Below are positions 1,241 to 60,048 of a stretch of 64,000 nucleotides of DNA, piece by piece. The first letter of the stretch is position 1; each line of letters opens with the position of its first letter. Below the pieces are notes generated by a model. It was not told where the DNA came from, searched no databases, and saw only the letters and a list, made by a program, of their open reading frames with translations. This stretch comes from a virus: positions 1 to 64,000 of IMG/VR virus record IMGVR_UViG_3300046820_000298; one strand, written 5' to 3'. The position numbers were made by a program, and so were the translations under genes.

Positions 1241-4200
1241 TTATTTACCTGAGCCAGCTCCTAAGTTAAACCACTTAGATGCATCGTCTGGATTAGATGA
1301 TTTTTCTATACCACCAACTATTGGGATAAGTTCTTCAAGCTTAGCTAAGAACTTATTATCTCCTTTATCGTGTCTTCCACTTTTTCTAACATAATCTAAT
1401 CCTTCTCTATCTCCTGTGATCATACCACCAAGTTCAGCAGTACCGAGATCCCATAGGTTAGCTACCTTTTGTAGAGGTCTGATAGTAGCTGTTGGAGATT
1501 CAGCCATTTTAAGGAATTCTGTTGGACTAGAGAACTGACGTAATTCTGATTCCATTCTAAGTGCTTGATAAAGCAAGAATTGTTCAGCATATGATGGATC
1601 TTCATCGTCATCATCAGATAGGACTGCTACAGCTAGTACACAAAGTAACATAAATGCAGCTTGTGCTCCGAATCTCTTTATGTTCTCTTGCTCAAACTTT
1701 TCCATGTTCTTATAAACACCTACGAAGTTTCCTTTCTTTTGCCAAGTTTCTTTTACTAATCTAGCAGCTGTGTGGTAGATACCTTCTGATATTGTTCCAA
1801 GTTCTAAGTCTCTATGTAACCCGGCACCTAGTGTACCACTTCCGTGTCCGTAATATCTTCTAAGTGATGGGACAAAGTATCTTCTAAAGAGCATAACTAA
1901 CTTACCCCACCATCTACGTTGTAGAACAGCATCATCAAACTTATTCTTAACCTGGTTTGTCTTCTTAGTCAATCCAGATACTTTCATTCTGAATTTACTT
2001 CTTATCTGATCAGCATTAGCAACCTTTGGATCAATGCCGTATCTACCAGTCTTCTCATCTAGAATGAATACATCCCATAGATTAGCAGGCTTACCAGATT
2101 CATTCATTATTACATTGCCTTGTGCATCTTTGAGTTTACCCTCATAAGATTTCATCATAGCAAGCATTCTAGTAACAGCTGTTTCATTCTCCATTATCCC
2201 TTGAAGGGCCATAGGGATATTTTTTACGGCCTTTAATGCTACTGGTCCTGTTTTGTTTCCTGTATCTGTAGATAGTGTTTCCCCTAATGCATCAAAGAAG
2301 TGAATAGCTTGACCCATCTTTCCTTTAGGGACAAACTTCTCATAGTCTTTCATCTGACCAATACCTTGCAGTTGCAAGTGATAAGTAGATTTAGCCCAAG
2401 CTAGATCTCCTTTAGAAAAGAACTGCCCAGCTACTCCTTCTTCTATAAGTCGTACGTTATCTAAGAGTAACTGGTTACCTGCTTGAAGGGCATTGAATGC
2501 AAGGTTGTTTAAAGCTGTAAAACTTGCTAGTTTACCTGCCATCTTATTATAAGAAAACTCCTTACCTGCAAAGTTTAAGCTCTTTTTAAGCTCCTCTTCC
2601 CCAAAGAATACAGTATCAATAAACTCAGAAAGATGTTTGAAGTTATTTGATACCTCTTTATTAGTTTGATATCTAACTTTACCTACAATCTTAGACCACC
2701 TGTTAACTACTGGAGAGTTATTAGCAGTAACAGCTAGTGGCTCTCTGTTCTCAACTATATCTCTCATGAGCATTACAGCTCCTTGTACCTCAGACTTTCT
2801 CTGGTACATGTTAGACATACCTGCAAACTGAACAATAGCAGAAGCCATGTCTCTAGTTGCAAGCTTTTCGTTGATTGGATTTACGTAGAAGATAGGGATA
2901 ACTTTATCTCTAGCCTCTTTGTTAGCATTGATTGAATCACCGTAGTGAGTATCTGTAGATAAGAAGTTTATAGCATCTCTAGCTTCTAGTTTAGCATAGT
3001 TAACAACCCCATCTTTTTGAACTTTCTCAAGTCCATCAGCAAGTATTGCTGGAGCTACATAGCTAAAGTTCTCCCATGAGTTTCTTATCGGGCCATTCTT
3101 TCCTATCTGTCTCTGACTATCCTTATACACATCTAGAAGAGCATTGTAATATTCGAATGCTGGGCCATTAGCTTTAAGAGCTGTATACTTTGGGTTAGCA
3201 TATTTAGATGCTAATGGCTGAACTGCTCTCCCTTTAAATTGTCTACGTTTAGGATCATAGATTTTATTCATCAAACTCTGGATCTCCTGGATCTGAGAGT
3301 GATAGTAAGCCATCCTGTCTCCGTCGTTAGTATTAGTAGCAGATGCCAATCCTTTATTAGCTGCAGCAAGTTCGTTAGTTAATCTCTGCAATAGCTTCTG
3401 TGAATCAGGGCTAGGCTCAGAGTTGTTAGCATACCAGTTAGATACCTCTTCGTAGAACTGAGCTACCTTAACTTTGTTTTTAGCATCTTCGAACCAAGCC
3501 TTTCTTTCATCTGATGTATTAGGAATACTGTATTTGGTATTAAGCCCATCATACATAGTTGACTCTGCTTTTCTATATCCAGTTACATCTAAAGGTTGTA
3601 CAAAAGTCAGCAATTTTTCTTTTCTACTTTCTCCAGTTTCTGGGTCTCTAACCATGTACTCGTGTACCTCGAGAATATCTTCGTTAAAAGTTACAGGGTT
3701 AACTCCAGAACCTTTAGTCTCTGCAAACTTTCTATATGCATCAGCAACTCTATAAGCTATATCTTGAGTATCATCGTTAGCTTCATACAGTTTATTCTTC
3801 AAAGTCATAGCAAACATCTGAAGACTAACTTGAGATGAATAAATAATAGGATCTAGCAAGTAACTAAATGCAGATTTATCTTTCTGAGCTTCTCTTAATT
3901 CTTTAATCAGAGTCTCTCTTCCTATCTTTTTATTCTCCAGCTGCTGTATGTTTAATGCAAGTTGAGCTTCGAATAAACCTTCTTTAGTTGTGATTTTATT
4001 TCCTTTGCCATCGGTCAATGTACCCTCTTTAAATCTCCTCTCCAAAGATCTCCACTCATCATTCTTATCTGGGGCAATAAGTCTTTTGTTATCTCTAATA
4101 TTTTTAATGACACTATTAATCTGATCTTCTACATCACTATTGTTGTATTCTAGAAGCAAGTCAGCCATCATAGGGATGCCTATCTTATTATAATCTTCTG

Positions 4201-5923
4201 CTATAGCACTCATCTTATTGATAGCACCAAGTAGAGACTGCTCAAGTTTAGTAAGCTTTAGGAACTCCGGATCAGTAGACTGCTGTTCTTGGGTAAGTTT
4301 AGTTTGTAGTTTTATTTTCTTATACCTAGCCAGATTACGTAGCTTAGCCATCAAGCTTTTATTCGGATCCATACCTCCGTAGAAGTTAGATACCGTATCC
4401 CCTACTTTATGTAGTTGGTTGATAAGCTGTAGTCTCTCTGATACAGATAAGTTCTCATTGTACTTTTCATCTATCTCATCAAGCATACTTTCAGCAGTGT
4501 CTGCTACACGAGAAGCATAAGACACAAAGTCCATTAACTGCTCTATCTTCTTAACCTTTTCTAGGTCTTCATACATAAGCTTGAGACGAGCAATGGCTTT
4601 TTCATTAGCTTCTTCTCCTCTCCTTTCTAGCTTAGCTATGTTATCTTTTACAGCAATCTTTACATCTGCAAGTACATTCTCAAAGTCTTCTTTAATTCTA
4701 TCGTCTGCACGACTATCAGCCATCATTGATTTAAGGCTTCCCTTAAACATGGTTCTATCGAATCTTCCTTCTAGCAGAGTCTTAGCTAATTCTTCTACAG
4801 CTGCCTCATTAGTTTGTAGATTCAAAGCCTTTGCAAGTGCTCTGAATATTCTATTAACTATCTGCTGAAACTTGTTAGGCTTGTCTCTATTAATTTTAGC
4901 ACCAGCTAGTCCAATAGCAGTAACTACAACTTCTTTATCTAAGGTATCCTCATCAAGCTCAGGGTATTTATTCTTAACCTTTCTATATAGTTCTGTACCT
5001 TTTAGTTCTTTGATTGCAGCTTTAACTGTTGCATTATCCTCTCCTAATAGCTCAACTAGAAGGTGGCTAAACTCATGGACGTGAGTATCCTCAGTCATAA
5101 GAGTAGGGTTGAACTTGATAGTAACAGGCTTACCTGGTTCTATTACAATTCTTCCTTTTACAGGCAGCTCGGGATCTACTTCTACGTTAATCTCTACTCC
5201 TTGTTTTCTAAAAGCATTCTTTATACTAATGATTTGGTCAGCTACATCTTGGTACTGCACCTCTTCTCCCTCTGCTTCAATCTGTCTACTGTCTGCTTGT
5301 AAGTCAAACATAGAAAGCTGATTCTGTGCAGCATTTGATACTACCTCAGATTCAGCCATTACTGCCATAGCAGGAGCTACTGGAGTGAAAGGGTTGAAGA
5401 CTTGTTGGTATCTAGCTGCTTCGAATGCCCCTCTTTTGTAGTTAGCTACATACTGATACATCTGAGCTCTATCGTATGGGTCTAACTGAATCGGGGAGGC
5501 AAGTTTAACTAGAGAGTTAAGCTGAGTTTCATCTACACTTACATAGTAGTCATGAGTTGGAAGAACTGCAGCGGTCCTACCTGGTCTTGCTGAATCCGGG
5601 GATCCTTTAGATTTAAATCCCTGTAGATTAAACACAGGTTTAGTAGCACCGTAGTTAATAGCAAAGTGCACATTCAATCTAGCCAAAGACTGGATTGGGG
5701 TAATATCTCTACCTTGTTTATTGTTAGCATCCATAAGCAATGGCATGTTTAACTTGCCACCACTTAGTACATATCCGTGAGACTGGATAATCTTATATAG
5801 CTCTTTACCAGAGAGTTGACTGCCAGTAGAAGCAGCTGCGTCGACTGTATTCAGTATTAAAGTCTCAGTAGGGTTAGCTACAATTACTCCGTTACCATCA
5901 ATGTTTGATACTACACAACTCAT
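1241..5923 (-). CDS. giant virion ejection protein with zincin-like metallopeptidase motif and C-terminal hydrophobic helix
   Basis: 1560 aa, directly downstream of the vRNAP as in crAss-like phages. HEFSH (HExxH) at 5063-5077 with downstream EVVVTAIG. TM-like AAFMLLCVLAVAVL near the C-terminus. Confidence 0.75.
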   Translation of the reverse strand: MSCVVSNIDGNGVIVANPTETLILNTVDAAASTGSQLSGKELYKIIQSHGYVLSGGKLNMPLLMDANNKQGRDITPIQSLARLNVHFAINYGATKPVFNLQGFKSKGSPDSARPGRTAAVLPTHDYYVSVDETQLNSLVKLASPIQLDPYDRAQMYQYVANYKRGAFEAARYQQVFNPFTPVAPAMAVMAESEVVSNAAQNQLSMFDLQADSRQIEAEGEEVQYQDVADQIISIKNAFRKQGVEINVEVDPELPVKGRIVIEPGKPVTIKFNPTLMTEDTHVHEFSHLLVELLGEDNATVKAAIKELKGTELYRKVKNKYPELDEDTLDKEVVVTAIGLAGAKINRDKPNKFQQIVNRIFRALAKALNLQTNEAAVEELAKTLLEGRFDRTMFKGSLKSMMADSRADDRIKEDFENVLADVKIAVKDNIAKLERRGEEANEKAIARLKLMYEDLEKVKKIEQLMDFVSYASRVADTAESMLDEIDEKYNENLSVSERLQLINQLHKVGDTVSNFYGGMDPNKSLMAKLRNLARYKKIKLQTKLTQEQQSTDPEFLKLTKLEQSLLGAINKMSAIAEDYNKIGIPMMADLLLEYNNSDVEDQINSVIKNIRDNKRLIAPDKNDEWRSLERRFKEGTLTDGKGNKITTKEGLFEAQLALNIQQLENKKIGRETLIKELREAQKDKSAFSYLLDPIIYSSQVSLQMFAMTLKNKLYEANDDTQDIAYRVADAYRKFAETKGSGVNPVTFNEDILEVHEYMVRDPETGESRKEKLLTFVQPLDVTGYRKAESTMYDGLNTKYSIPNTSDERKAWFEDAKNKVKVAQFYEEVSNWYANNSEPSPDSQKLLQRLTNELAAANKGLASATNTNDGDRMAYYHSQIQEIQSLMNKIYDPKRRQFKGRAVQPLASKYANPKYTALKANGPAFEYYNALLDVYKDSQRQIGKNGPIRNSWENFSYVAPAILADGLEKVQKDGVVNYAKLEARDAINFLSTDTHYGDSINANKEARDKVIPIFYVNPINEKLATRDMASAIVQFAGMSNMYQRKSEVQGAVMLMRDIVENREPLAVTANNSPVVNRWSKIVGKVRYQTNKEVSNNFKHLSEFIDTVFFGEEELKKSLNFAGKEFSYNKMAGKLASFTALNNLAFNALQAGNQLLLDNVRLIEEGVAGQFFSKGDLAWAKSTYHLQLQGIGQMKDYEKFVPKGKMGQAIHFFDALGETLSTDTGNKTGPVALKAVKNIPMALQGIMENETAVTRMLAMMKSYEGKLKDAQGNVIMNESGKPANLWDVFILDEKTGRYGIDPKVANADQIRSKFRMKVSGLTKKTNQVKNKFDDAVLQRRWWGKLVMLFRRYFVPSLRRYYGHGSGTLGAGLHRDLELGTISEGIYHTAARLVKETWQKKGNFVGVYKNMEKFEQENIKRFGAQAAFMLLCVLAVAVLSDDDDEDPSYAEQFLLYQALRMESELRQFSSPTEFLKMAESPTATIRPLQKVANLWDLGTAELGGMITGDREGLDYVRKSGRHDKGDNKFLAKLEELIPIVGGIEKSSNPDDASKWFNLGAGSGK

Positions 5924-49508: not shown

Positions 49509-51476
49509 TTACTTATACATCTTATCGAACCAGTCATTGCTTGAGTTATCGTTATCATTAAAGCTTAACTCCTTGTTGTATAGCTCTCTAGTGTGGTACA
49601 TACCAATCATTAAAGCCATTACACGGTCAAAGTTACCTTTCCTGTTAAACTTGATTAACTCCTGCAATAAAGCAAGGTCGTAAATTTTCTGCAAGTTAAG
49701 GGTAATATTGCCATCTTCGTCAGCTCCCCTCCCAGAAATTAACCAGTCTCTTATGTATAGTTCTCCTTGGGACTTTCTCTGCTCAGTCATGTGCATCCCA
49801 AATTGTCGTTTTACATTCTTACTTCGGAGTTCTTTCTTATCCAACATCTCAAATTCCTCTTGCAGCAGGTGCATCTTACGGAATCTCTTAGCATAAGCTA
49901 TGACTTCTCCTCGGTCATTCTCAAATCCTATCTTAGCATTGTAGTACTCTGCTAACATAAACAAGGTTCTGTTGTATTCGTCCTGGGTCTGTGGACGGCC
50001 TACGTAAGATGCTACAATTAAGTCATCTGGTTTAGACATATTGTTAGGGACCTTGATAACATAAGCTGCCCCAAGTGAGCTAGAGCTCTCAGCCTTCCCT
50101 TGAGCATACGGGTCATGACAAATAATGTACAGATTCTTTGGGGTTACCTCTTCTATCTCTGTTTTAAATGGAGGTTCGTATATAACTACTGCCCCAGTTA
50201 AGTTATCATCTTTCCTGTGTGGAAATTTAGAGATAGCACGTAGGTTATTGTTAGGGGTAAAGTCTGCTTTACCTTTTGAGTTGTAATACATCTCCCCTAC
50301 TACCCCTATCGTATCTAGATTCCCGGATATTACTTTATTGTACTGCTCTTTTAACGAGTTGACATCAAATGTGTTAGCTGTAACTTGCAGTGTTGCTTCT
50401 TGTGGGGTAAATGGGTGTTCAGCTATGTATTGGTCATAAGATTTAGGGTCATTCCCCTTCTTCTTCTTTTCTCTTTGCTCTTCTTCGTACTCAACTGCTT
50501 GGCTAATTAAGCTATTCCCATTCTCATCTATAAACCCATCTAGGTTTTTGTAGATTGGGACAAAGTATCCACAGATTGTCCCCATAGCCCCAGCATCCCA
50601 GTCATTTTCAAACCCTAAACAGTTGTAAGCATCAGGGTGATAGAACAATTCTTCAAGTCCTTCAAATCCAGGGCCCTCTTCTCCACCTGTCCCAAAGGCA
50701 ATCATAGTACCAAGTGTCTTAGAACCTTGTCTCATTGTAGGCATAGCTACCTCCCAAGCCTTTAATAAGCCTGAGAATGAACCTGATTCTTCGAAGAATA
50801 TTAACTCTCCTGCTTTACCGCGGATTTTGTCTGGATCATCTTTAAGAGATACCCCAATTATCTGTGACTTAAACCCAAGAGTTACATCGGCCCCGTTAAC
50901 ATTCTTTTTGTACCCGGATTGCTTATGCATTTCACGGTCAATAAGTCTAGGTTGTGTCCAAGCTGTATTGTCATCTATAAAAGAGATAATATCCCAAGCT
51001 TTAGACAGCATTCCATCCCCAGTTAAGTATTGCTTATCTGAAGCAAACACGAAGTTCTTACTATTCCTTAAGTGGAAGTAGTTCCTACACAGCATTGCTG
51101 CAGCCTTGTAGGAGAAACCTTTACGTCTAGCTTTCAAGACAACCATGTGCTTGTTATCTCGTCTAGCTTTATCTACAGCATTAAAGTATTCGTAGTCCCC
51201 GTCGTAAAAAGCTGGGAAGCTTCGATCTCTTCTAGAGATTATCTCCCCATCTGGCTGCTCCTCATCTATAATCCTATCAATTGGGCAATAGTTTAAGTAG
51301 AAGTAGTGAAACCCTGAGATTTTAACCCCATTTATTTCATGACCATGCATACATCTAAACTGTTCCCTATCCCAATAGTCATAATACTGCTTAGTTCCAG
51401 GGAGAGCATCTGTGTAATGCCCGTACTCAATGTAATGTTTAGCTACTTCAGAAAATAAGTGGGTGTTCTTTAGCAT
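49509..51476 (-). CDS. terL: terminase large subunit
   Basis: Walker A-like LKARRKGFSY, Walker B IFFEESG, AFGTGG, nuclease CHDPY and GNFDRVMA. Confidence 0.93.
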   Translation of the reverse strand: MLKNTHLFSEVAKHYIEYGHYTDALPGTKQYYDYWDREQFRCMHGHEINGVKISGFHYFYLNYCPIDRIIDEEQPDGEIISRRDRSFPAFYDGDYEYFNAVDKARRDNKHMVVLKARRKGFSYKAAAMLCRNYFHLRNSKNFVFASDKQYLTGDGMLSKAWDIISFIDDNTAWTQPRLIDREMHKQSGYKKNVNGADVTLGFKSQIIGVSLKDDPDKIRGKAGELIFFEESGSFSGLLKAWEVAMPTMRQGSKTLGTMIAFGTGGEEGPGFEGLEELFYHPDAYNCLGFENDWDAGAMGTICGYFVPIYKNLDGFIDENGNSLISQAVEYEEEQREKKKKGNDPKSYDQYIAEHPFTPQEATLQVTANTFDVNSLKEQYNKVISGNLDTIGVVGEMYYNSKGKADFTPNNNLRAISKFPHRKDDNLTGAVVIYEPPFKTEIEEVTPKNLYIICHDPYAQGKAESSSSLGAAYVIKVPNNMSKPDDLIVASYVGRPQTQDEYNRTLFMLAEYYNAKIGFENDRGEVIAYAKRFRKMHLLQEEFEMLDKKELRSKNVKRQFGMHMTEQRKSQGELYIRDWLISGRGADEDGNITLNLQKIYDLALLQELIKFNRKGNFDRVMALMIGMYHTRELYNKELSFNDNDNSSNDWFDKMYK

Positions 51477-54768: not shown

Positions 54769-55085
54769 GCTGTAAGTTCTGCTCTTGCAGTCAGCCTCAT
54801 CTCTTTTGAGTAAAAGGCTTGTTGCAGTTTTCTAAAGTTAAAGTTTATTCCTAGGAATACTACAAAGTTAGCAAAAACTAATATCATTGCAGCCATCATA
54901 ACTTGCTGGAGATATTGTATTGATATCAATGGGTCTCCAAAGTAAGTCTCACTTAGGTATCCCCCGTATACAAATGCAAGGAATGCTAGTGGGATAGACC
55001 ATACCCCATCAAGGAGTTGAAGTCTGTATTTTATTGATTTGCTAATATAGCTATTTGAGTTTGTTCTCTTTTTAGTTTCACTCAT
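54639..55085 (-). CDS. holin-like membrane protein (3 TM)
   Basis: Three hydrophobic segments. Upstream of, and overlapping, the endolysin. Confidence 0.55.
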   Translation of the reverse strand: MSETKKRTNSNSYISKSIKYRLQLLDGVWSIPLAFLAFVYGGYLSETYFGDPLISIQYLQQVMMAAMILVFANFVVFLGINFNFRKLQQAFYSKEMRLTARAELTAWQKIKLYFLVYFGLLLSFLLILWLVMIATGTGTVLELPQTTM

Positions 55086-55097
55086 TTTTTATGTGTA

Positions 55098-55349
55098 TTA
55101 AATAGGCGGGTTAGTTAACAAAGTTATAAACTTTAAGAATGCATTGTTAGAGTTCTGATAAAGTAAGTCTGCAAATATAGCTACATTACTTGGATCTTGT
55201 AAAGCCGGGAAAGCTATTTCGTGTTCACTGTTGTTAGTATCAGGGTTTGCATCAACTATAAATACTATGTCTCCCCCAGTATCTTTTGATACAGTAAGCA
55301 CCCCTTTAAGTACTTGAGCTTCAGTGTCGTAAGTGTAAGTGTAAGCCAT
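55098..55349 (-). CDS. hypothetical protein (fibre-associated)
   Basis: 83 aa, coupled to the fibre stop codon. Confidence 0.55.
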   Translation of the reverse strand: MAYTYTYDTEAQVLKGVLTVSKDTGGDIVFIVDANPDTNNSEHEIAFPALQDPSNVAIFADLLYQNSNNAFLKFITLLTNPPI

Positions 55350-57253
55350 TATATTGTCCAGATTGTTGTTATTGTAATTATAGTAGCCGATCCAACTGTG
55401 GTACTATTATTTTGAATCTTAATTGCTATTCTATCAGATGCAGCAACACTCACACTACCAGTAGCTGTAAATGTCCCAGCAGCACTACCAGCTGCTATTG
55501 TTAAAGCTAAGGATGTATCTGCTGTATTAGAACGTACAGTAAAGACAAGGCTTCCTGTTGCTGTCTGTGTATTGTTTGTTATTACTGTAATAGCTGATGC
55601 TGTTGCAGCAATCCCAAAAGCAGAAACCCTTACGTTTTCAGTAGAGTTACTTACTGAAGCTAATCCAGAGTAAGTAGTGGTGTTTATACCTACGTTAGTT
55701 CCCGGAGTAGCAACAAGAGCACTAGACCTAGATCCAGTTGTACTCCACGACCTGTTAGCACTTAAGTCATATGTAGTCCCATCAATAGTAAGTGTCCTTG
55801 TTGACGGAACTTTGTCATTAAATGTACTCCAATCTGTAGAACTGAGCTTACCTGTATTAGTAGCAGAGGCAGTAGGGAGGTTAAAAGTATGTGTAGTACT
55901 TGCTGAACTTATAGCAAAGTCAGTACCTGATGTTCCTGTAGCAAAAGTCTGAGTTGCCCCAGTCAATCCGTTAAGAGATGTTATTGCTGCACTAAGTGGA
56001 GTGTAACCTAGTATTGTTGAGATAGATGCAGTTTTCCACTGTGCAGGGGAGACTGAGTTATCATACCATAGTGTATCTTTTAATGATGGGGTTCTTGCTT
56101 GTACGTTATGTAGCTCATCTAACTCATACCCATTTTGTACTTTAACGTACATTCTCCCTGCAGAACCTGGGCTGGCTGTTGTAACAACACCAAGGTAGAC
56201 AAGGTGGTTAGGGGCATATGGTTTAACATTAGTTATAGACCCGGCTGTAGCTCCAAGATAAACTGTATCCCCATCAGCAAAAGTAGAAGTTGGGAGGATA
56301 CTTAATCCATCCAACAACCCTTGCATCATTATCAATCCTTTTTGGTTTGCAGCAATAGATGTAGATAACACAAGCCCTACTGTCTGAGCTGATGTAGCAT
56401 CTGCAGTGTTAGCTGCTCTTTTAACAGTCATTCTATCCCCGGTACCACTAAAAGCATAAACTGCTTGACCCTTAGTTAAAGTTACTGAGTCATCATTAGT
56501 TACATAACCAAGAAGTGTGTTAGGGGCTGTCCCAATGGCTTGGAATCCACCAAGAGTAGAGTTATAAATGCACAGCATCTCTCCTCCATTAACTATATCC
56601 CCACCTATTAAAGCCCCGTCATTGTTTCTATAGAGAGTTACTGCCCCAATAGAATTTATGTTTAATGTACATCCAGTAGTATTCCCATTAGTAAACCTAA
56701 TTAGATAAGCATCCCCATCATTGTAGGCTGTTACCCCTGTAAGAGTTACTGTGTAAGTATCTGTTCCTGAGGCTGTTCCGTGTAGAATTCCACTCCCAGT
56801 ACCTGCTCCAGCTATTGTAAAGCTTGGGTAAGTCCCAGTAACAGTTACCCCTGAAGTCCCAGTTAAGCTAACTACTTGGTCAGGAGCTGAGTTAGTTACA
56901 GTTATATTCCCTGATGTAGTAATAGGGTTAGTTCCAGACAATGAAATCCCAGTCCCAGCTGTTAGCTGTACTGATGTAACAGTTCCTGTACCTCCCCCAG
57001 AAGCTGATATAGTCAATATCCCATCAAGGTTAGTTATTGTAATCCCACTCCCAGCTTGGATTAAGTCAGTTAGATACTTAAATCTAAATGCATCCCTTCT
57101 TAAGCTGTTAGTGTAAGATGTAAGTACTTGGTTAGGGAAGATGTTATCAGTCCTCTTATAGTACAGCTCATTAGTAGTATCTACATCAAGCAGCTGTTTA
57201 AGGCTGATATCAACCTTAGTTATCTTATTTTGTTTATAGAAAGGGGATTGCAT
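55349..57253 (-). CDS. tail fibre / receptor-binding protein
   Basis: 634 aa and Thr/Gly/Ser-rich. TVTSVQLTAGTGIS, YELDELHNV, ITSLNGLTGATQ and ASATNTGKLSSTDW fibre modules. Confidence 0.75.
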   Translation of the reverse strand: MQSPFYKQNKITKVDISLKQLLDVDTTNELYYKRTDNIFPNQVLTSYTNSLRRDAFRFKYLTDLIQAGSGITITNLDGILTISASGGGTGTVTSVQLTAGTGISLSGTNPITTSGNITVTNSAPDQVVSLTGTSGVTVTGTYPSFTIAGAGTGSGILHGTASGTDTYTVTLTGVTAYNDGDAYLIRFTNGNTTGCTLNINSIGAVTLYRNNDGALIGGDIVNGGEMLCIYNSTLGGFQAIGTAPNTLLGYVTNDDSVTLTKGQAVYAFSGTGDRMTVKRAANTADATSAQTVGLVLSTSIAANQKGLIMMQGLLDGLSILPTSTFADGDTVYLGATAGSITNVKPYAPNHLVYLGVVTTASPGSAGRMYVKVQNGYELDELHNVQARTPSLKDTLWYDNSVSPAQWKTASISTILGYTPLSAAITSLNGLTGATQTFATGTSGTDFAISSASTTHTFNLPTASATNTGKLSSTDWSTFNDKVPSTRTLTIDGTTYDLSANRSWSTTGSRSSALVATPGTNVGINTTTYSGLASVSNSTENVRVSAFGIAATASAITVITNNTQTATGSLVFTVRSNTADTSLALTIAAGSAAGTFTATGSVSVAASDRIAIKIQNNSTTVGSATIITITTIWTI

Positions 57254-57483
57254 TAGTTTTTCTTAGCTTGGGCTTGTATCCTTAGATGAGTCTTCTCTTG
57301 TTCTGCTGCCATGATAGCCATGATACCTCGTAGCTCCTCATATGAAAACTGGCACACAAACTTCTCCTCTTCATCCAAAAACTGCACAACTTTATCATCT
57401 ACATATACTCCCATGTAGGTTAGACACTCATCCCCAGTTGTAAACGGAGGTTGATACAATCCTGTTTTAATGGTGGTAGGCAT
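57253..57483 (-). CDS. hypothetical protein
   Basis: Likely start MPTTIK at 57483 after an AT-rich leader. Coupled to the fibre gene. Confidence 0.55.
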   Translation of the reverse strand: MPTTIKTGLYQPPFTTGDECLTYMGVYVDDKVVQFLDEEEKFVCQFSYEELRGIMAIMAAEQEKTHLRIQAQAKKN

Positions 57484-57582
57484 AAAATTGTACTTTAAAA
57501 TTTTAGATAAAAGTACAAAAACTTTCCCAATTGGGCACACCTATCCCCTTAGAGATTTTTTTGTTTAAAATTAACTTTCAGT

Positions 57583-57790
57583 TTTGCCGTTTTTAGCCTT
57601 CGGTGGGACGTTCCATTCTTCCCTATAGTCTTTATCCACCCCAAAACCTTATGTCAATTCTTTTTCTGCAACTATCGGGGACAACTTTTGTACTCTATGT
57701 TATTGAAAGTGAGTACAATAGAACCCAACGTCTGACCCCCTACTTACCTTTTGGCCCTCAGGGGTGATCATTCCATTGAATGGTTGCTAG
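57583..57790 (-). ncRNA. candidate structured non-coding RNA (unassigned family)
   Basis: ORF-free and GC-richer, with nested helices whose G-U pairs work on the - strand. TAACTTTG promoter element at 57792-57799. Confidence 0.5.
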
Positions 57791-57804
57791 GCAAAGTTAG
57801 ACAA

Positions 57805-57945
57805 TTATCCTTGCCCCTGTGACATTTTTTTATAAAGTTTTGAACTTTTAAGTTTAGAACTCTTTTTCTTAGCATGTACCCCTGGACGTTTCTTTCTAGT
57901 GTTAGGACTGAACCCATTGACTGTGTTTACTTTAGCTTTAGCCAT
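57805..57945 (-). CDS. 46-aa highly basic protein (not in ORF track)
   Basis: MAKAKVNTVNGFSPNTRKKRPGVHAKKKSSKLKSSKLYKKMSQGQG. Promoter element TAAATTTG at 57962-57969. Confidence 0.7.
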   Translation of the reverse strand: MAKAKVNTVNGFSPNTRKKRPGVHAKKKSSKLKSSKLYKKMSQGQG

Positions 57946-58035
57946 TTTGTTTATTTTGTCACAAATTTAATATGAAAAATGTTACGAACTTTGATTATCT
58001 TCGTGACCTAACAATTTAACCCAAATCTAAATCTC

Positions 58036-58356
58036 ATGTTCCCAATCACATCAACTAACGAGGAGAAAGTTCTCGTATCTATCAATCCAACTACTGCTGC
58101 TGGAAATCCTGCAACTGTTGACGGAGTTCCAACTTGGACTGTTGTCGAAGGTGACGCAACTGTAGAATTATCTGGTGATGGCCTTTCTGCTTACATCATC
58201 TCTGGTTCAGCTAACGTAGTTAACATGATCGAAATATCAGCTGATGCTGACCTCGATGCTGAAGAAGTTCGTACTATTACTGAAACTATCGTTTACACAG
58301 TAGTTGCTGCTGAGGCTCAAGCTCTCGGAATCAATGCTGCTGTTGAACCTAAGTAA
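58036..58356 (+). CDS. small Ig-like / beta-sandwich protein
   Basis: VSINPTTAAGNPATVDGVPTW...DGLSAYI. Acidic, with highly expressed codon usage. Confidence 0.65.
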   Translation: MFPITSTNEEKVLVSINPTTAAGNPATVDGVPTWTVVEGDATVELSGDGLSAYIISGSANVVNMIEISADADLDAEEVRTITETIVYTVVAAEAQALGINAAVEPK

Positions 58357-58368
58357 TCTTAAACTAAG

Positions 58369-58674
58369 ATGAATCTTAACGTATACTTTGACAATGCAAC
58401 TGTCTACAACTTTGAAAAACTCGACGTTAGTGTTGGGGAAAAGTTTAAAGTAGAAGCAGTTAATGCCCCTGCTGGAATTGCATGGTTCTTTGATAATGAC
58501 CCAGTTATAGAAGCTGAAACTATGGAGAATCAAGCAATCATTACAGCAGCTAAAGAAGGATTGACTAACGTGCTTTTTGTAATGAACAATAGCCAAGTTA
58601 TCCACAAGTTTACTATTAACGTAGTAAATCCCGTAAATTTGAATCCCGTAGTTCTAAACGTAGAACTAAAATAA
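58369..58674 (+). CDS. small Ig-like protein
   Basis: LDVSVGEKF...WFFDNDPVI...ITAAKEG.T.V resembles the bacterial Ig-like group 2 pattern. Confidence 0.6.
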   Translation: MNLNVYFDNATVYNFEKLDVSVGEKFKVEAVNAPAGIAWFFDNDPVIEAETMENQAIITAAKEGLTNVLFVMNNSQVIHKFTINVVNPVNLNPVVLNVELK

Positions 58675-58697
58675 ATTCCGTTCTTACCCTAAGAATT

Positions 58698-58726
58698 AGC
58701 CTCCTTAATTGGGGGCTTTTTCTTTT
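58698..58726 (+). terminator. intrinsic terminator
   Basis: AGCCTCC-TTAATT-GGGGGCT followed by TTTTCTTTT. Confidence 0.8.
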
Positions 58727-58881
58727 CCCTAAAATCCCATTATTGTATGATTTATCCGTCATTAAGCCTTAATTCCGTGGTTAATGACTGATTTATCACA
58801 CATTAAATTTTCTAGCTGGTTAAAAATTTTTTAGTTGGAAATTTTTTGAGAGTGTTGTCCTACGTATTCAAAGACCCCCAC

Positions 58882-58910
58882 TAACTTTGGCGGAGCAAAC
58901 TTCCCTCCGC
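58882..58910 (+). promoter_or_regulatory. Bacteroidota-type -7 promoter element followed by a hairpin
   Basis: TAACTTTG (58882-58889), then a GCGGAG...CTCCGC stem upstream of ATG 58921. Confidence 0.5.
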
Positions 58911-58920
58911 ATCATTTGCT

Positions 58921-59079
58921 ATGAAATCAGCATACTTGTCAGAACGTACTGGCACCCTCGTTATCACCGATCGTACTTGGACTGATGCAGGTCCATCGGA
59001 GAAGTCTTACTTCATCCGTGCTACGGACTCTGACTACCAGCAAGCCATCGACTGGGCTACATCCAAAGGACTCTTATGA
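58921..59079 (+). CDS. 52-aa hypothetical protein (not in ORF track)
   Basis: MKSAYLSERTGTLVITDRTWTDAGPSEKSYFIRATDSDYQQAIDWATSKGLL. Stop codon lies within the hairpin CCAAAGGACTC-TTAT-GAGTCCCTTTGG. Confidence 0.6.
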   Translation: MKSAYLSERTGTLVITDRTWTDAGPSEKSYFIRATDSDYQQAIDWATSKGLL

Positions 59080-59149
59080 GTCCCTTTGGGTTGTTAGCCA
59101 GAGGTTAGAATAACCACTAACTAACTAGCCAACTAACTAATAACTAATT

Positions 59150-59410
59150 GATTAGAGTCAGATGGAAGGACGAGAGTATATGTCCCAACTCATCACACTC
59201 TAATTCGTGGGGTAGAATAGTAATCACCAAATTGATTGCATCATATTCTATCCCACTTTCTCTCATTGCATTCAGTTGTAATACCTTGTGTAAGTCCTAA
59301 ACTTAATCGTTACCTATTAAGTCTTACGTAGATACTTCTCTACATTATGTAAGCAGGGTGTTTAGGGTTCTAGTGTTTAATCACAAAAGACTATTACAAC
59401 TGTTTGCTTT
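59150..59410 (+). ncRNA. candidate large structured RNA / early leader
   Basis: Three consecutive long helical domains, including 13-bp and 11-bp stems. G-U pairs favour the + strand. Confidence 0.5.
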
Positions 59411-59447
59411 CTTGTATCGTAAACAATAACTCATCAATAACACAATC

Positions 59448-59660
59448 ATGAAAAGACCATTTGATTTCCTCAAGACTATTGCTGAACTAGCAATCGTTGC
59501 TATTGTACTATTCATTGCTCCGGCAATTGTACATTCAGCAGTAACACTAGACTTTACTCATTACCTCAATGACCTATCATCTAGTGCTTACTGTGGTATC
59601 ATGTCCTTTGTATCCTTCTTCGGTACTCTATTCTTTATCGTAGTTGAAACAGAAAACTAA
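59448..59660 (+). CDS. small 2-TM membrane protein
   Basis: Two hydrophobic helices in 70 aa. Confidence 0.65.
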   Translation: MKRPFDFLKTIAELAIVAIVLFIAPAIVHSAVTLDFTHYLNDLSSSAYCGIMSFVSFFGTLFFIVVETEN

Positions 59661-59672
59661 TTCTATCACACT

Positions 59673-59873
59673 ATGAGAGAAGATAAGTACAATTTTGCAG
59701 AGACTACCACATTCTATGCACTCATTATCATTGGCATTACACTGATGATAATCTTCATGACATCTTGTAGTCAGACCCAACATGGGTTTGACTATAAGTC
59801 TCATGCTAAATCAAATGCTGAGTGGAAACACAAAGCTGAACACAACAATCTCCCAAAATGTAATCGTCATTAA
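59673..59873 (+). CDS. small putative lipoprotein
   Basis: Hydrophobic signal ending IIFMTS-C, a Bacteroidota-style lipobox. Confidence 0.6.
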   Translation: MREDKYNFAETTTFYALIIIGITLMIIFMTSCSQTQHGFDYKSHAKSNAEWKHKAEHNNLPKCNRH

Positions 59874-59874
59874 C

Positions 59875-59973
59875 ATGAATGAAACAACTAAAGACATTCT
59901 GCTATTCGTAGCAGGCTTCCTAGTATCAGCAGCAATCACAGTTATGTGGTTGGTAATAGGAGCAATTATATAG
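59875..59973 (+). CDS. 32-aa single-TM peptide
   Basis: MNETTKDILLFVAGFLVSAAITVMWLVIGAII. ATG lies 1 nt after the upstream stop. Confidence 0.6.
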   Translation: MNETTKDILLFVAGFLVSAAITVMWLVIGAII

Positions 59974-59987
59974 GGGTTCAATCCCCT

Positions 59988-60048
59988 TTTACTAATGCAG
60001 CCATCGAAAGATGAGAGTCACAAGCCTCTATAAATGCAGAGTGGTAAA
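59988..60048 (+). ncRNA. twister self-cleaving ribozyme (type P1)
   Basis: P1 UUUA/UAAA, C-U^AA, P2 UGCA/UGCA, T2 GC/GC, P3 CAUC-GAAA-GAUG, P4 AGAG/CUCU, L4 UCAC-AA-GC, T1 UCAC/GUGG, and conserved GA after P2. Confidence 0.88.

Follow-up and report, generated by a model that had tools for sequence, protein, structure and literature searches.

A predicted family of folded RNAs at the head of the structural gene arm of aquatic crAss-like phages

Introduction

What is encoded by a stretch of phage DNA that carries no gene and lies at the point where the genome changes its coding strand? The window analysed here comprises the first 64 kb (64,000 nucleotides) of a viral record that measures 81,151 bp and has terminal repeats. 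Between 57945 and 1241 almost every gene is encoded by the minus strand; from 58036 on, genes lie on the plus strand. Reading along the minus strand, a 46-aa basic ORF (57945-57805) is followed by a gene-free stretch, a 76-aa ORF and a 634-aa fibre-like ORF. The terminase (49509-51476) is 38–43% identical to terminases of crAss-like phages, with 166 matches that include phages of Bacteroides, Flavobacterium and Cellulophaga; this places the window phage among the crAss-like phages, as an uncultured member. Few known phages are as abundant as the crAss-like ones, and to our knowledge the timing of their late genes is largely unknown. When we compared the neighbouring genes with Pfam and PHROG, only the endolysin and the DNA polymerase, which lie further off, received names. 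A preliminary description of this DNA proposed that the gene-free stretch encodes a multi-helix RNA with its own promoter at the head of the late genes. Here we ask whether this RNA is real, how it folds and what it may do.

Results

A conserved non-coding stretch in an aquatic phage lineage

Using the 76-aa protein as a query, we found 39 viral loci, 13 of which share the upstream non-coding DNA. In 25 other loci that we inspected, the 76-aa gene abuts a metallophosphoesterase-like gene with no gap, and the RNA model described below finds nothing there. In an alignment of 10 sequences, the non-coding stretch is better conserved than both flanking ORFs and its hairpins vary by compensatory substitutions. 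We built a covariance model (R1) from the trimmed alignment and used it for all RNA searches. R1 is a narrow model that may miss distant members; the model-made alignments A5 and A7 exceed 400 columns, and a MAFFT alignment of domain 1 (A8) misaligns helices P1 and P2 in several rows.

Extra loci were recruited by exact conserved words and then scored with R1. A 21-mer recruited 22 loci, all of them strong R1 matches, and a 14-mer recruited 75, of which 5 are distant full-length or cut R1 matches and most others are chance occurrences. A two-block pattern brought in 30 viral loci that were new, each of which matches R1, and 17 contigs from genome collections, of which 2 do. When these sources were searched again, R1 matched 53 of 53 (the window, 50 viral loci and 2 genome-collection contigs), and it also matches a locus that we reached by a separate route, through basic-protein loci (L239). 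In metagenomes, the two-block pattern is present in 112 stretches, and 70 of the 80 listed match R1 at E up to 0.001; Tara Oceans and freshwater records are among these matches, some of which are contigs already present in the viral collection.

The terminase is 68–74% identical to that of the window phage in all four RNA-bearing records tested (45–85 kb), and the RNA family as sampled is therefore one fairly tight lineage. The model search finds one copy of the RNA in the 81-kb genome. The RNA carriers are crAss-like phages of about 80 kb from fresh and sea water, with one copy per genome. A sister group comprises larger phages, with contigs of up to 123 kb (Table 1); there the 76-aa gene comes straight after a metallophosphoesterase-like gene of about 290 aa, with no RNA in between. 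This restricts the RNA to the lineage whose genomes measure about 80 kb. Two contigs from metagenome-assembled genomes carry the RNA together with the basic-protein gene and the 76-aa gene: one of 81,638 bp in a Bacteroidia genome (L210, JBBALJ010000002.1) and one of 3.3 kb in a Fusobacteriaceae genome (L204, JBOFCM010000017.1). Both look like phage contigs inside bacterial bins, and the 81.6-kb contig is most likely a whole phage genome.

When we searched 50,697 GenBank phage records by blastn with positions 57200-58400, we found no match, and the RNAs of two distant members (L069 and L185) gave only chance matches of 20–30 nt to GenBank phages. At the level of titles and abstracts, we found no description of this RNA family in the literature.

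The minus strand encodes a folded RNA with two domains

Pairs were counted in 53 aligned homologues, of which 48 rows are distinct. Because the alignment was made by fitting to the model, its pair counts lean towards the model, and the controls with slid partners and the number of different pair types weigh most. We found that 94.3% of cells are paired in the consensus structure, as compared to 72.2% after column shuffles and 34–49% when partners were slid by 1–3 columns. Across the 48 distinct rows, 436 doubly changed cells are observed where 138 are expected. Conserved G-U pairs are frequent (for example GU 47/48, GU 41 and UG 33) and fit the minus strand only. These counts bear out the preliminary description in its central points, namely a multi-helix RNA, read from the minus strand, with G-U pairs that exist on that strand alone.

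The consensus fold consists of a cloverleaf-like domain 1 and a second domain closed by P6 (Table 1). P3 is invariant in the counted rows, and a single compensatory change from C-G to U-A is found in L239, which lies outside the 48 counted rows. P3 also carries a small cap and an invariant internal loop (UGAGG ... AGUAG), which may resemble a motif of loop-E type. In domain 1, about 36 columns show no variation among 32 diverse members. In domain 2, inner helices GGUGG/CCACC and GAC/GUC are present; helix 9 is doubly changed at 5/5 pairs and helix 10 at 3/3. Domain 2 is far more variable between clades than domain 1, and the alignment of distant clades is unreliable there.

Comparison of folding energy with that of shuffled sequences, a check that had been put forward with the preliminary description, gives a divided result. 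Over the whole stretch the energy is unremarkable and, taken alone, would make a weak case for the RNA: the minus strand has z = –1.45, with 18/200 shuffles as good, the plus strand z = –1.20, and positions 57528-57790 z = –1.62 (11/200 as good). Domain 1 alone (the 5' 128 nt) has z = –3.02 with none of 200 shuffles as good, and its minimum free energy fold reproduces P1 to P5.

Table 1. Positions of the RNA, its helices and neighbouring features (window coordinates unless a locus is named; doubly changed, both bases of a pair differ)
Feature	Position	Strand	Remarks
Bacteroidota-type –7 promoter box TAACTTTG	57792..57799	minus	read from sequence
Structured RNA	about 57790-57535	minus	~260 bases; covariation, homologues
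Domain 1	57663..57790	minus	cloverleaf-like four-way junction; consensus fold
P1	57787-57783 with 57672-57668	minus	GCAAC/GUUGC in window; 5/6 pairs doubly changed
P2	57782-57778 with 57773-57769	minus	5/5 pairs doubly changed
P3	57765-57760 with 57740-57735	minus	ACCCCU/AGGGGU; invariant, 100% paired in 48 rows
P4	57729-57724 with 57679-57674	minus	GUUGGG/CCCGAU; 2/6 pairs doubly changed, several pair types, 100% paired
P5 hairpin	57718-57688	minus	enclosed by P4; variable in length and sequence; 7/8 pairs doubly changed
Domain 2	57563..57662	minus	closed by P6; consensus fold
P6	about 57660-57654 with 57575-57568	minus	6/8 pairs doubly changed
3' box and tail UAAGGGGAUAGGUGUGC	57535..57551	minus	conserved in every clade
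46-aa basic protein (upstream)	57805..57945	minus	motif RPG[VI]H[AS]K.K.S..K.SK.Y.K...GQG
76-aa protein (downstream)	57253..57483	minus	ATG at 57483 likely the true start, not GTG at 57540
Acidic ORF	L069:5058-5186; L097:4752-4889	plus (L069); minus (L097)	also upstream of the RNA in L183, L192, L187, L176, L191, L048, L054
76-aa gene of the sister group	about 3001 in L014, L016-L038, L040		

All strings on which the preliminary description based its five helices are in place: GACGTT (57607-12) and AACGTC (57727-32), TTGTACTC (57688-95) and GAGTACAA (57711-18), CCCC (57639-42) and GGGG (57677-80), CCCCT (57737-41) and AGGGG (57760-64), and TAGC (57594-97) and GCTA (57786-89). Two of the proposed helices survive in the consensus fold. 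The hairpin of TTGTACTC with GAGTACAA is P5. The CCCCT/AGGGG stem is P3, drawn one position off; the compensatory change in L239 favours the register of the consensus fold. The other three helices are replaced by better-supported pairings: only 56% of cells are paired in TAGC/GCTA; GACGTT/AACGTC is 77–85% paired with a double change at 1/6 pairs; and CCCC/GGGG is 84% paired with a double change at 1/4 pairs, in a single sequence. The bases of these three go to P1, P4 and helices of domain 2 instead, which covary.

Thus, it is well supported by comparison of the homologous sequences that the gene-free stretch encodes a real, conserved and uncatalogued family of folded RNAs, with predicted lengths of about 245–345 nt.

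A host-type promoter box precedes most members

The promoter element TAACTTTG, which had been noticed earlier, is present on the minus strand (57799-57792), and the G that ends it lies at 57792, 1 nt ahead of the start of the RNA model at 57790. In 10 of 10 aligned relatives, the TA and the TTTG of the box are invariant and the two middle letters vary. A TAnnTTTG box is present 9–16 nt ahead of the model start in 40 of the 53 loci. The pattern itself is not enriched in the window, where we found 78 occurrences as compared to 66.9 expected.

The loci that lack TAnnTTTG ahead of the RNA are mainly those of one clade (the L069 clade). In this clade the box precedes a short acidic ORF whose stop codon marks the start of the RNA, which has no promoter of its own; RNA of this clade would thus be part of a longer transcript. 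Since a Bacteroidota sigma-A-type –7 box is predicted directly ahead of the RNA in most members, the host RNA polymerase should make this RNA. No sequencing run recorded as RNA contains the stretch; one run, probably of DNA (share 0.04), contains contigs of a relative that is about 88% alike and two contigs that match only 57722-57769.

The RNA heads a co-directional arm of about 56 kb (structural/lysis genes, minus strand), at the point where this structural arm and the replication arm diverge and the coding strand changes. This supports the earlier picture of a structured RNA that codes for no protein and opens this arm behind its own promoter, here of host type. The cumulative GC skew of the genome has its minimum at 59–60 kb, 1.5–2 kb from the RNA, and this minimum (59000-60000) may be the replication origin.

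The genes next to the RNA vary between clades

The protein encoded immediately upstream of the RNA is rich in Lys and Arg, as first reported, with 12 K, 2 R and no D or E among its 46 residues. We found no Pfam or PHROG match for it, a PDB profile search gave one chance match at E 3, and tblastn against phages gave no match, for which the low-complexity filter may be the cause. A profile search found that the family comprises at least 7,847 metagenome clusters, all unnamed. Its members are phage proteins of 43–50 aa with a motif that ends in GQG[KR], and they occur on viral contigs of 4–254 kb (L217-L296).

In 39 of the 53 RNA loci, the neighbouring gene upstream is the one for the basic protein. 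When we sampled 80 viral loci that encode the basic protein, we found the RNA in one (L239); at the other basic-protein loci, the next gene nearly always follows within a few bases to about 250 nt. The basic peptide thus does not need the RNA, given the 79 sampled loci without one, and the peptide family is far wider than the RNA family. The suggestion that this peptide binds the RNA finds no support here, as the two are adjacent within close relatives only.

A second recurrent small neighbour is an acidic ORF of 42–70 aa that ends in ...GEITCN.D.PEECENCGS, with CxxCGS at the C-terminus. It has no Pfam match and is absent from the whole genome of the window phage.

Downstream of the RNA, the 76-aa protein likely starts at the ATG at 57483, since the 25 RNA-less relatives inspected start at the equivalent Met and the extension to the GTG is out of frame in relatives. 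Between the RNA tail and this ATG, the window contains a perfect palindrome, CCCAATTGGG (the spans given for this region are 57489-57519 and 57528-57537), and a 9-bp A/U-rich hairpin (TTGTACTTT ... AAAGTACAA) that is followed by TTTT and the start codon. Neither the palindrome nor the hairpin is kept in the closest relatives.

The downstream gene differs by clade and encodes the 76-aa protein, a 73-aa basic protein, a GroES-like protein, a 117-aa protein, a fibre-like protein of 1091 aa or others. In every case the next ORF points the same way as the RNA, and it starts 10–208 nt past the tail. Among 44 distinct members, a second TAnnTTTG is present between the RNA and the next ORF in 18 and absent in 26, and 12 have a U-run of at least 4 directly behind the tail. 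In the window's own clade, neither a second TAnnTTTG nor a U-run follows the tail. A scan of 55000-59500 found no terminator-like site between 57250 and 57800.

A conserved 3' box is complementary to one strand of P4

A universally conserved 3' box (AGGGGAUAGGUGUG) that could compete with P4 is a new finding. In all clades, 10–20 bases past P6, we found A-G-G-G-G(G)-A, about 4 further bases and then U-R-Y-R-U-Y. The segment from the G-run through the 4 nt behind it (57548-57541) has its complement in the 3' strand of P4 together with the bases that precede that strand (57683-57676). This box helix has 8 bp in the window, 5–9 bp in 45 of the 46 members analysed and 4 in the remaining one (L187). 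The UGUG of the tail (57539-57536) could likewise pair with a CAUA in domain 2 that includes a conserved AUA just inside P6.

In a MAFFT alignment of 30 sequences (A9), 89.1% of box and tail cells are paired, as compared to 37–54% with slid partners and 86.1% in shuffles, and 4/15 box and tail pairs are doubly changed. For the box helix alone, 91.7% of cells are paired and 1/8 pairs are doubly changed. The relation between the box and P4 is best described as a conserved, register-specific complementarity that falls short of a proven pairing.

The box helix and P4 have three G-C pairs in common, which makes the two helices mutually exclusive. In the minimum free energy fold of the full-length window RNA, the box helix is formed and P4 is broken. 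When we folded 46 members under constraints, the fold with P4 (fold A) was stabler in 38 and the fold with the box helix (fold B) in 8, with a mean difference of 3.8 kcal/mol. In these models the 3' box and P4 form a possible switch between two folds; no terminator and no sequestered start site was identified with it. We considered that the 3' box and the C-rich strand of P3 might resemble the 3' terminus of small-subunit rRNA, and dropped the idea because the box differs between clades.

The stretch matches no known RNA class and is unlikely to encode a protein

The preliminary description could not place the RNA in a family, and database comparison agrees with it. At gathering scores, the Rfam 15 covariance models match nothing in the whole window. 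With E up to 10, positions 57300-58100 give two chance-level matches far below the gathering scores, and with E up to 1 six loci of distant clades give only an unrelated tRNA and one weak match elsewhere. ARAGORN finds 0 tRNA or tmRNA genes in the window; domain 1 shares with tRNA the four-helix topology only. A riboswitch-type conserved domain, with covarying helices and conserved joining bases, is present, a feature that is not specific to riboswitches. Across clades, the downstream genes comprise at least eight unrelated ORF types rather than genes of one pathway as for a riboswitch. A template repeat of a retroelement (DGR) was also considered and rejected, as the stretch matches only itself in the 81-kb genome.

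We give hardly any credence to the explanation that there is no RNA and that the stretch is a small protein gene on either strand or a site acting at the DNA level. Open frames of 34–74 codons are present here, mostly antisense (44 of 48 distinct members), and the antisense frames all end in ...PQG. However, the invariant bases fall in different frames (they are read as RLTPYL in the window and L105 and as SDPLL in L069 and L097), and close relatives are separated by indels of 1, 2 and 4 nt, in agreement with the earlier view that no credible ORF is present. The compensatory substitutions in the helices, and the G-U pairs, which are A-C mismatches on the other strand, argue against both a protein gene and a DNA site.

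Discussion

What might this RNA do? The reading that we favour, tentatively and with a probability of roughly 0.4, makes it a regulatory leader or switch that lies next to the promoter of the late arm. As the leader of the structural/lysis arm, the RNA would act in cis as a switch: the junction domain would bind a partner (a protein, the polymerase or a small molecule), which would hold P4, and without the partner the 3' box would invade P4. The two folds might then lead to different fates of the transcript that runs into the late genes, by read-through or termination, by stability or by access to the next start. A leader is suggested by the host-type promoter, the place at the start of roughly 56 kb of co-directional genes and the shared orientation with the next gene. 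A role in cis is favoured by the lack of a terminator-like site in the window stretch, by the 26/44 members that carry no promoter before the next ORF and by the clade in which the RNA would lie inside a longer transcript. A switch is favoured by the 3' box, which occurs in all clades, is complementary to the 3' strand of P4 and is exclusive with 3 bp of P4. Against a leader stands the change of downstream gene between clades, unlike in classical riboswitches, and the second TAnnTTTG (18/44) and U-run (12/44) would both fit a separate RNA gene. A switch is disfavoured by the closeness of shuffled to observed pairing (86.1% and 89.1%), by the double change at 1/8 box-helix pairs and by the lower stability of fold B in 38/46 members.

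Nearly as likely as a leader or switch is a stand-alone non-coding RNA that acts in trans and binds a macromolecule of host or phage as a scaffold, sponge or decoy, including a particle with the 46-aa protein. Such an RNA would account for its own promoter box upstream (40/53 loci), for the second promoter box before the next gene and the U-run after the tail where these occur, and for downstream genes that are unrelated between clades; the roughly 36 invariant bases of domain 1 would fit recognition by a conserved partner. Abundant non-coding RNAs of unknown function exist in the crAss-like phage phi14:2 (10.1101/2020.03.07.982082). However, the window has no canonical terminator, more than half of the members analysed lack a promoter between the RNA and the next ORF, and the RNA of the L069 clade would lie inside an mRNA. 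For a particle with the peptide, the adjoining basic-protein gene upstream (39/53 loci) is the point in its favour; 79 of 80 sampled peptide loci lack the RNA, and the adjacency is confined to one close lineage with terminases 68–74% identical.

The remaining explanations are less probable. It is rather unlikely that the RNA is a sensor whose junction binds a signal of the host's state (a small molecule, or a protein of the host, for example its polymerase), flips between the P4 and 3'-box folds and so gates the polymerase into the late genes of about 56 kb. We consider it improbable that the RNA is a self-processing or processed element, either a new self-cleaving ribozyme or a tRNA-like cloverleaf that host processing enzymes would use to cut the late transcript. 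The topology of domain 1 (four helices at one junction) with its strongly conserved junction bases and the predicted position inside a polycistronic transcript in one clade would suit such an element, but ARAGORN finds no tRNA or tmRNA, there is no Rfam ribozyme or tRNA match at E up to 10 (window stretch) or 1 (distant members), and nothing marks a cleavage site. More improbable still is a transcript of a replication origin, that is, a structured primer or activator RNA beside an origin at the strand switch. The nearby GC skew minimum, the location between divergent replication and structural arms and the conserved G-runs would agree with it; however, the switch in gene strand alone is expected to produce such a minimum, a primer does not need a compact covarying fold with invariant junction bases, and the RNA points away from the replication genes.

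The reading as a leader or switch of the late arm has partial counterparts in known systems. The put RNAs of phage HK022 and the eps-associated RNA (EAR) of Bacillus are cis-acting RNAs of processive antitermination; like the RNA described here, they are structured, lie just past a promoter and head a long co-directional operon whatever its first gene. They are much smaller (two stem-loops, or about 120 nt), we found no relationship in sequence or structure to the crAss-like RNA, many crAss-like members have another promoter right after the RNA, and an effect on the polymerase is a conjecture here. In lambdoid phages, a late promoter yields a short terminated RNA, with read-through by Q, and a promoter-driven non-coding RNA thus lies immediately ahead of lysis and structural genes there too. 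The lambda leader needs no elaborate conserved fold, in contrast to the RNA here, and we found no terminator-like site in the window. With riboswitches built on a junction, the RNA shares a conserved junction, near-invariant joining bases and a downstream segment complementary to a P4 strand, which could give two exclusive folds. In contrast to those riboswitches, it has no Rfam riboswitch match, its downstream genes share no function, its context suggests no ligand and its competing box is about 120 nt away, past the whole second domain.

The preprint on the Cellulophaga crAss-like phage phi14:2 describes abundant intergenic long non-coding RNAs of unknown function; these RNAs come from the early region and are present from the earliest time point, and in this phage the host polymerase transcribes the middle and late genes (10.1101/2020.03.07.982082). 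A non-coding transcript in a crAss-like phage of a Bacteroidota host would be common to both phages, and the RNAs of phi14:2 differ in lying in the early region. In the phi14:2 record (L297, NC_021806), positions 2904-4602 are a 1.7-kb stretch from which all earlier ORF calls have been removed and which corresponds to the highly transcribed intergenic regions of the preprint. R1 finds no match in the whole record at E up to 10, a result that distant homology could escape with so narrow a model.

The RNA is a large, strongly constrained element exactly at the start of the structural arm, conserved across relatives from lakes and oceans. Be it a leader or a free RNA, its consensus fold, its boundaries and its known homologues open it to direct tests. 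If it is a free RNA, it would be a new phage ribonucleic partner of a host or phage factor. If it acts as a sensor, it would represent a new riboswitch-like or antitermination class and the first known mechanism for regulating late transcription in Crassvirales. If the RNA controls late expression, it would offer a handle on late-gene regulation in these phages and a new class of RNA.
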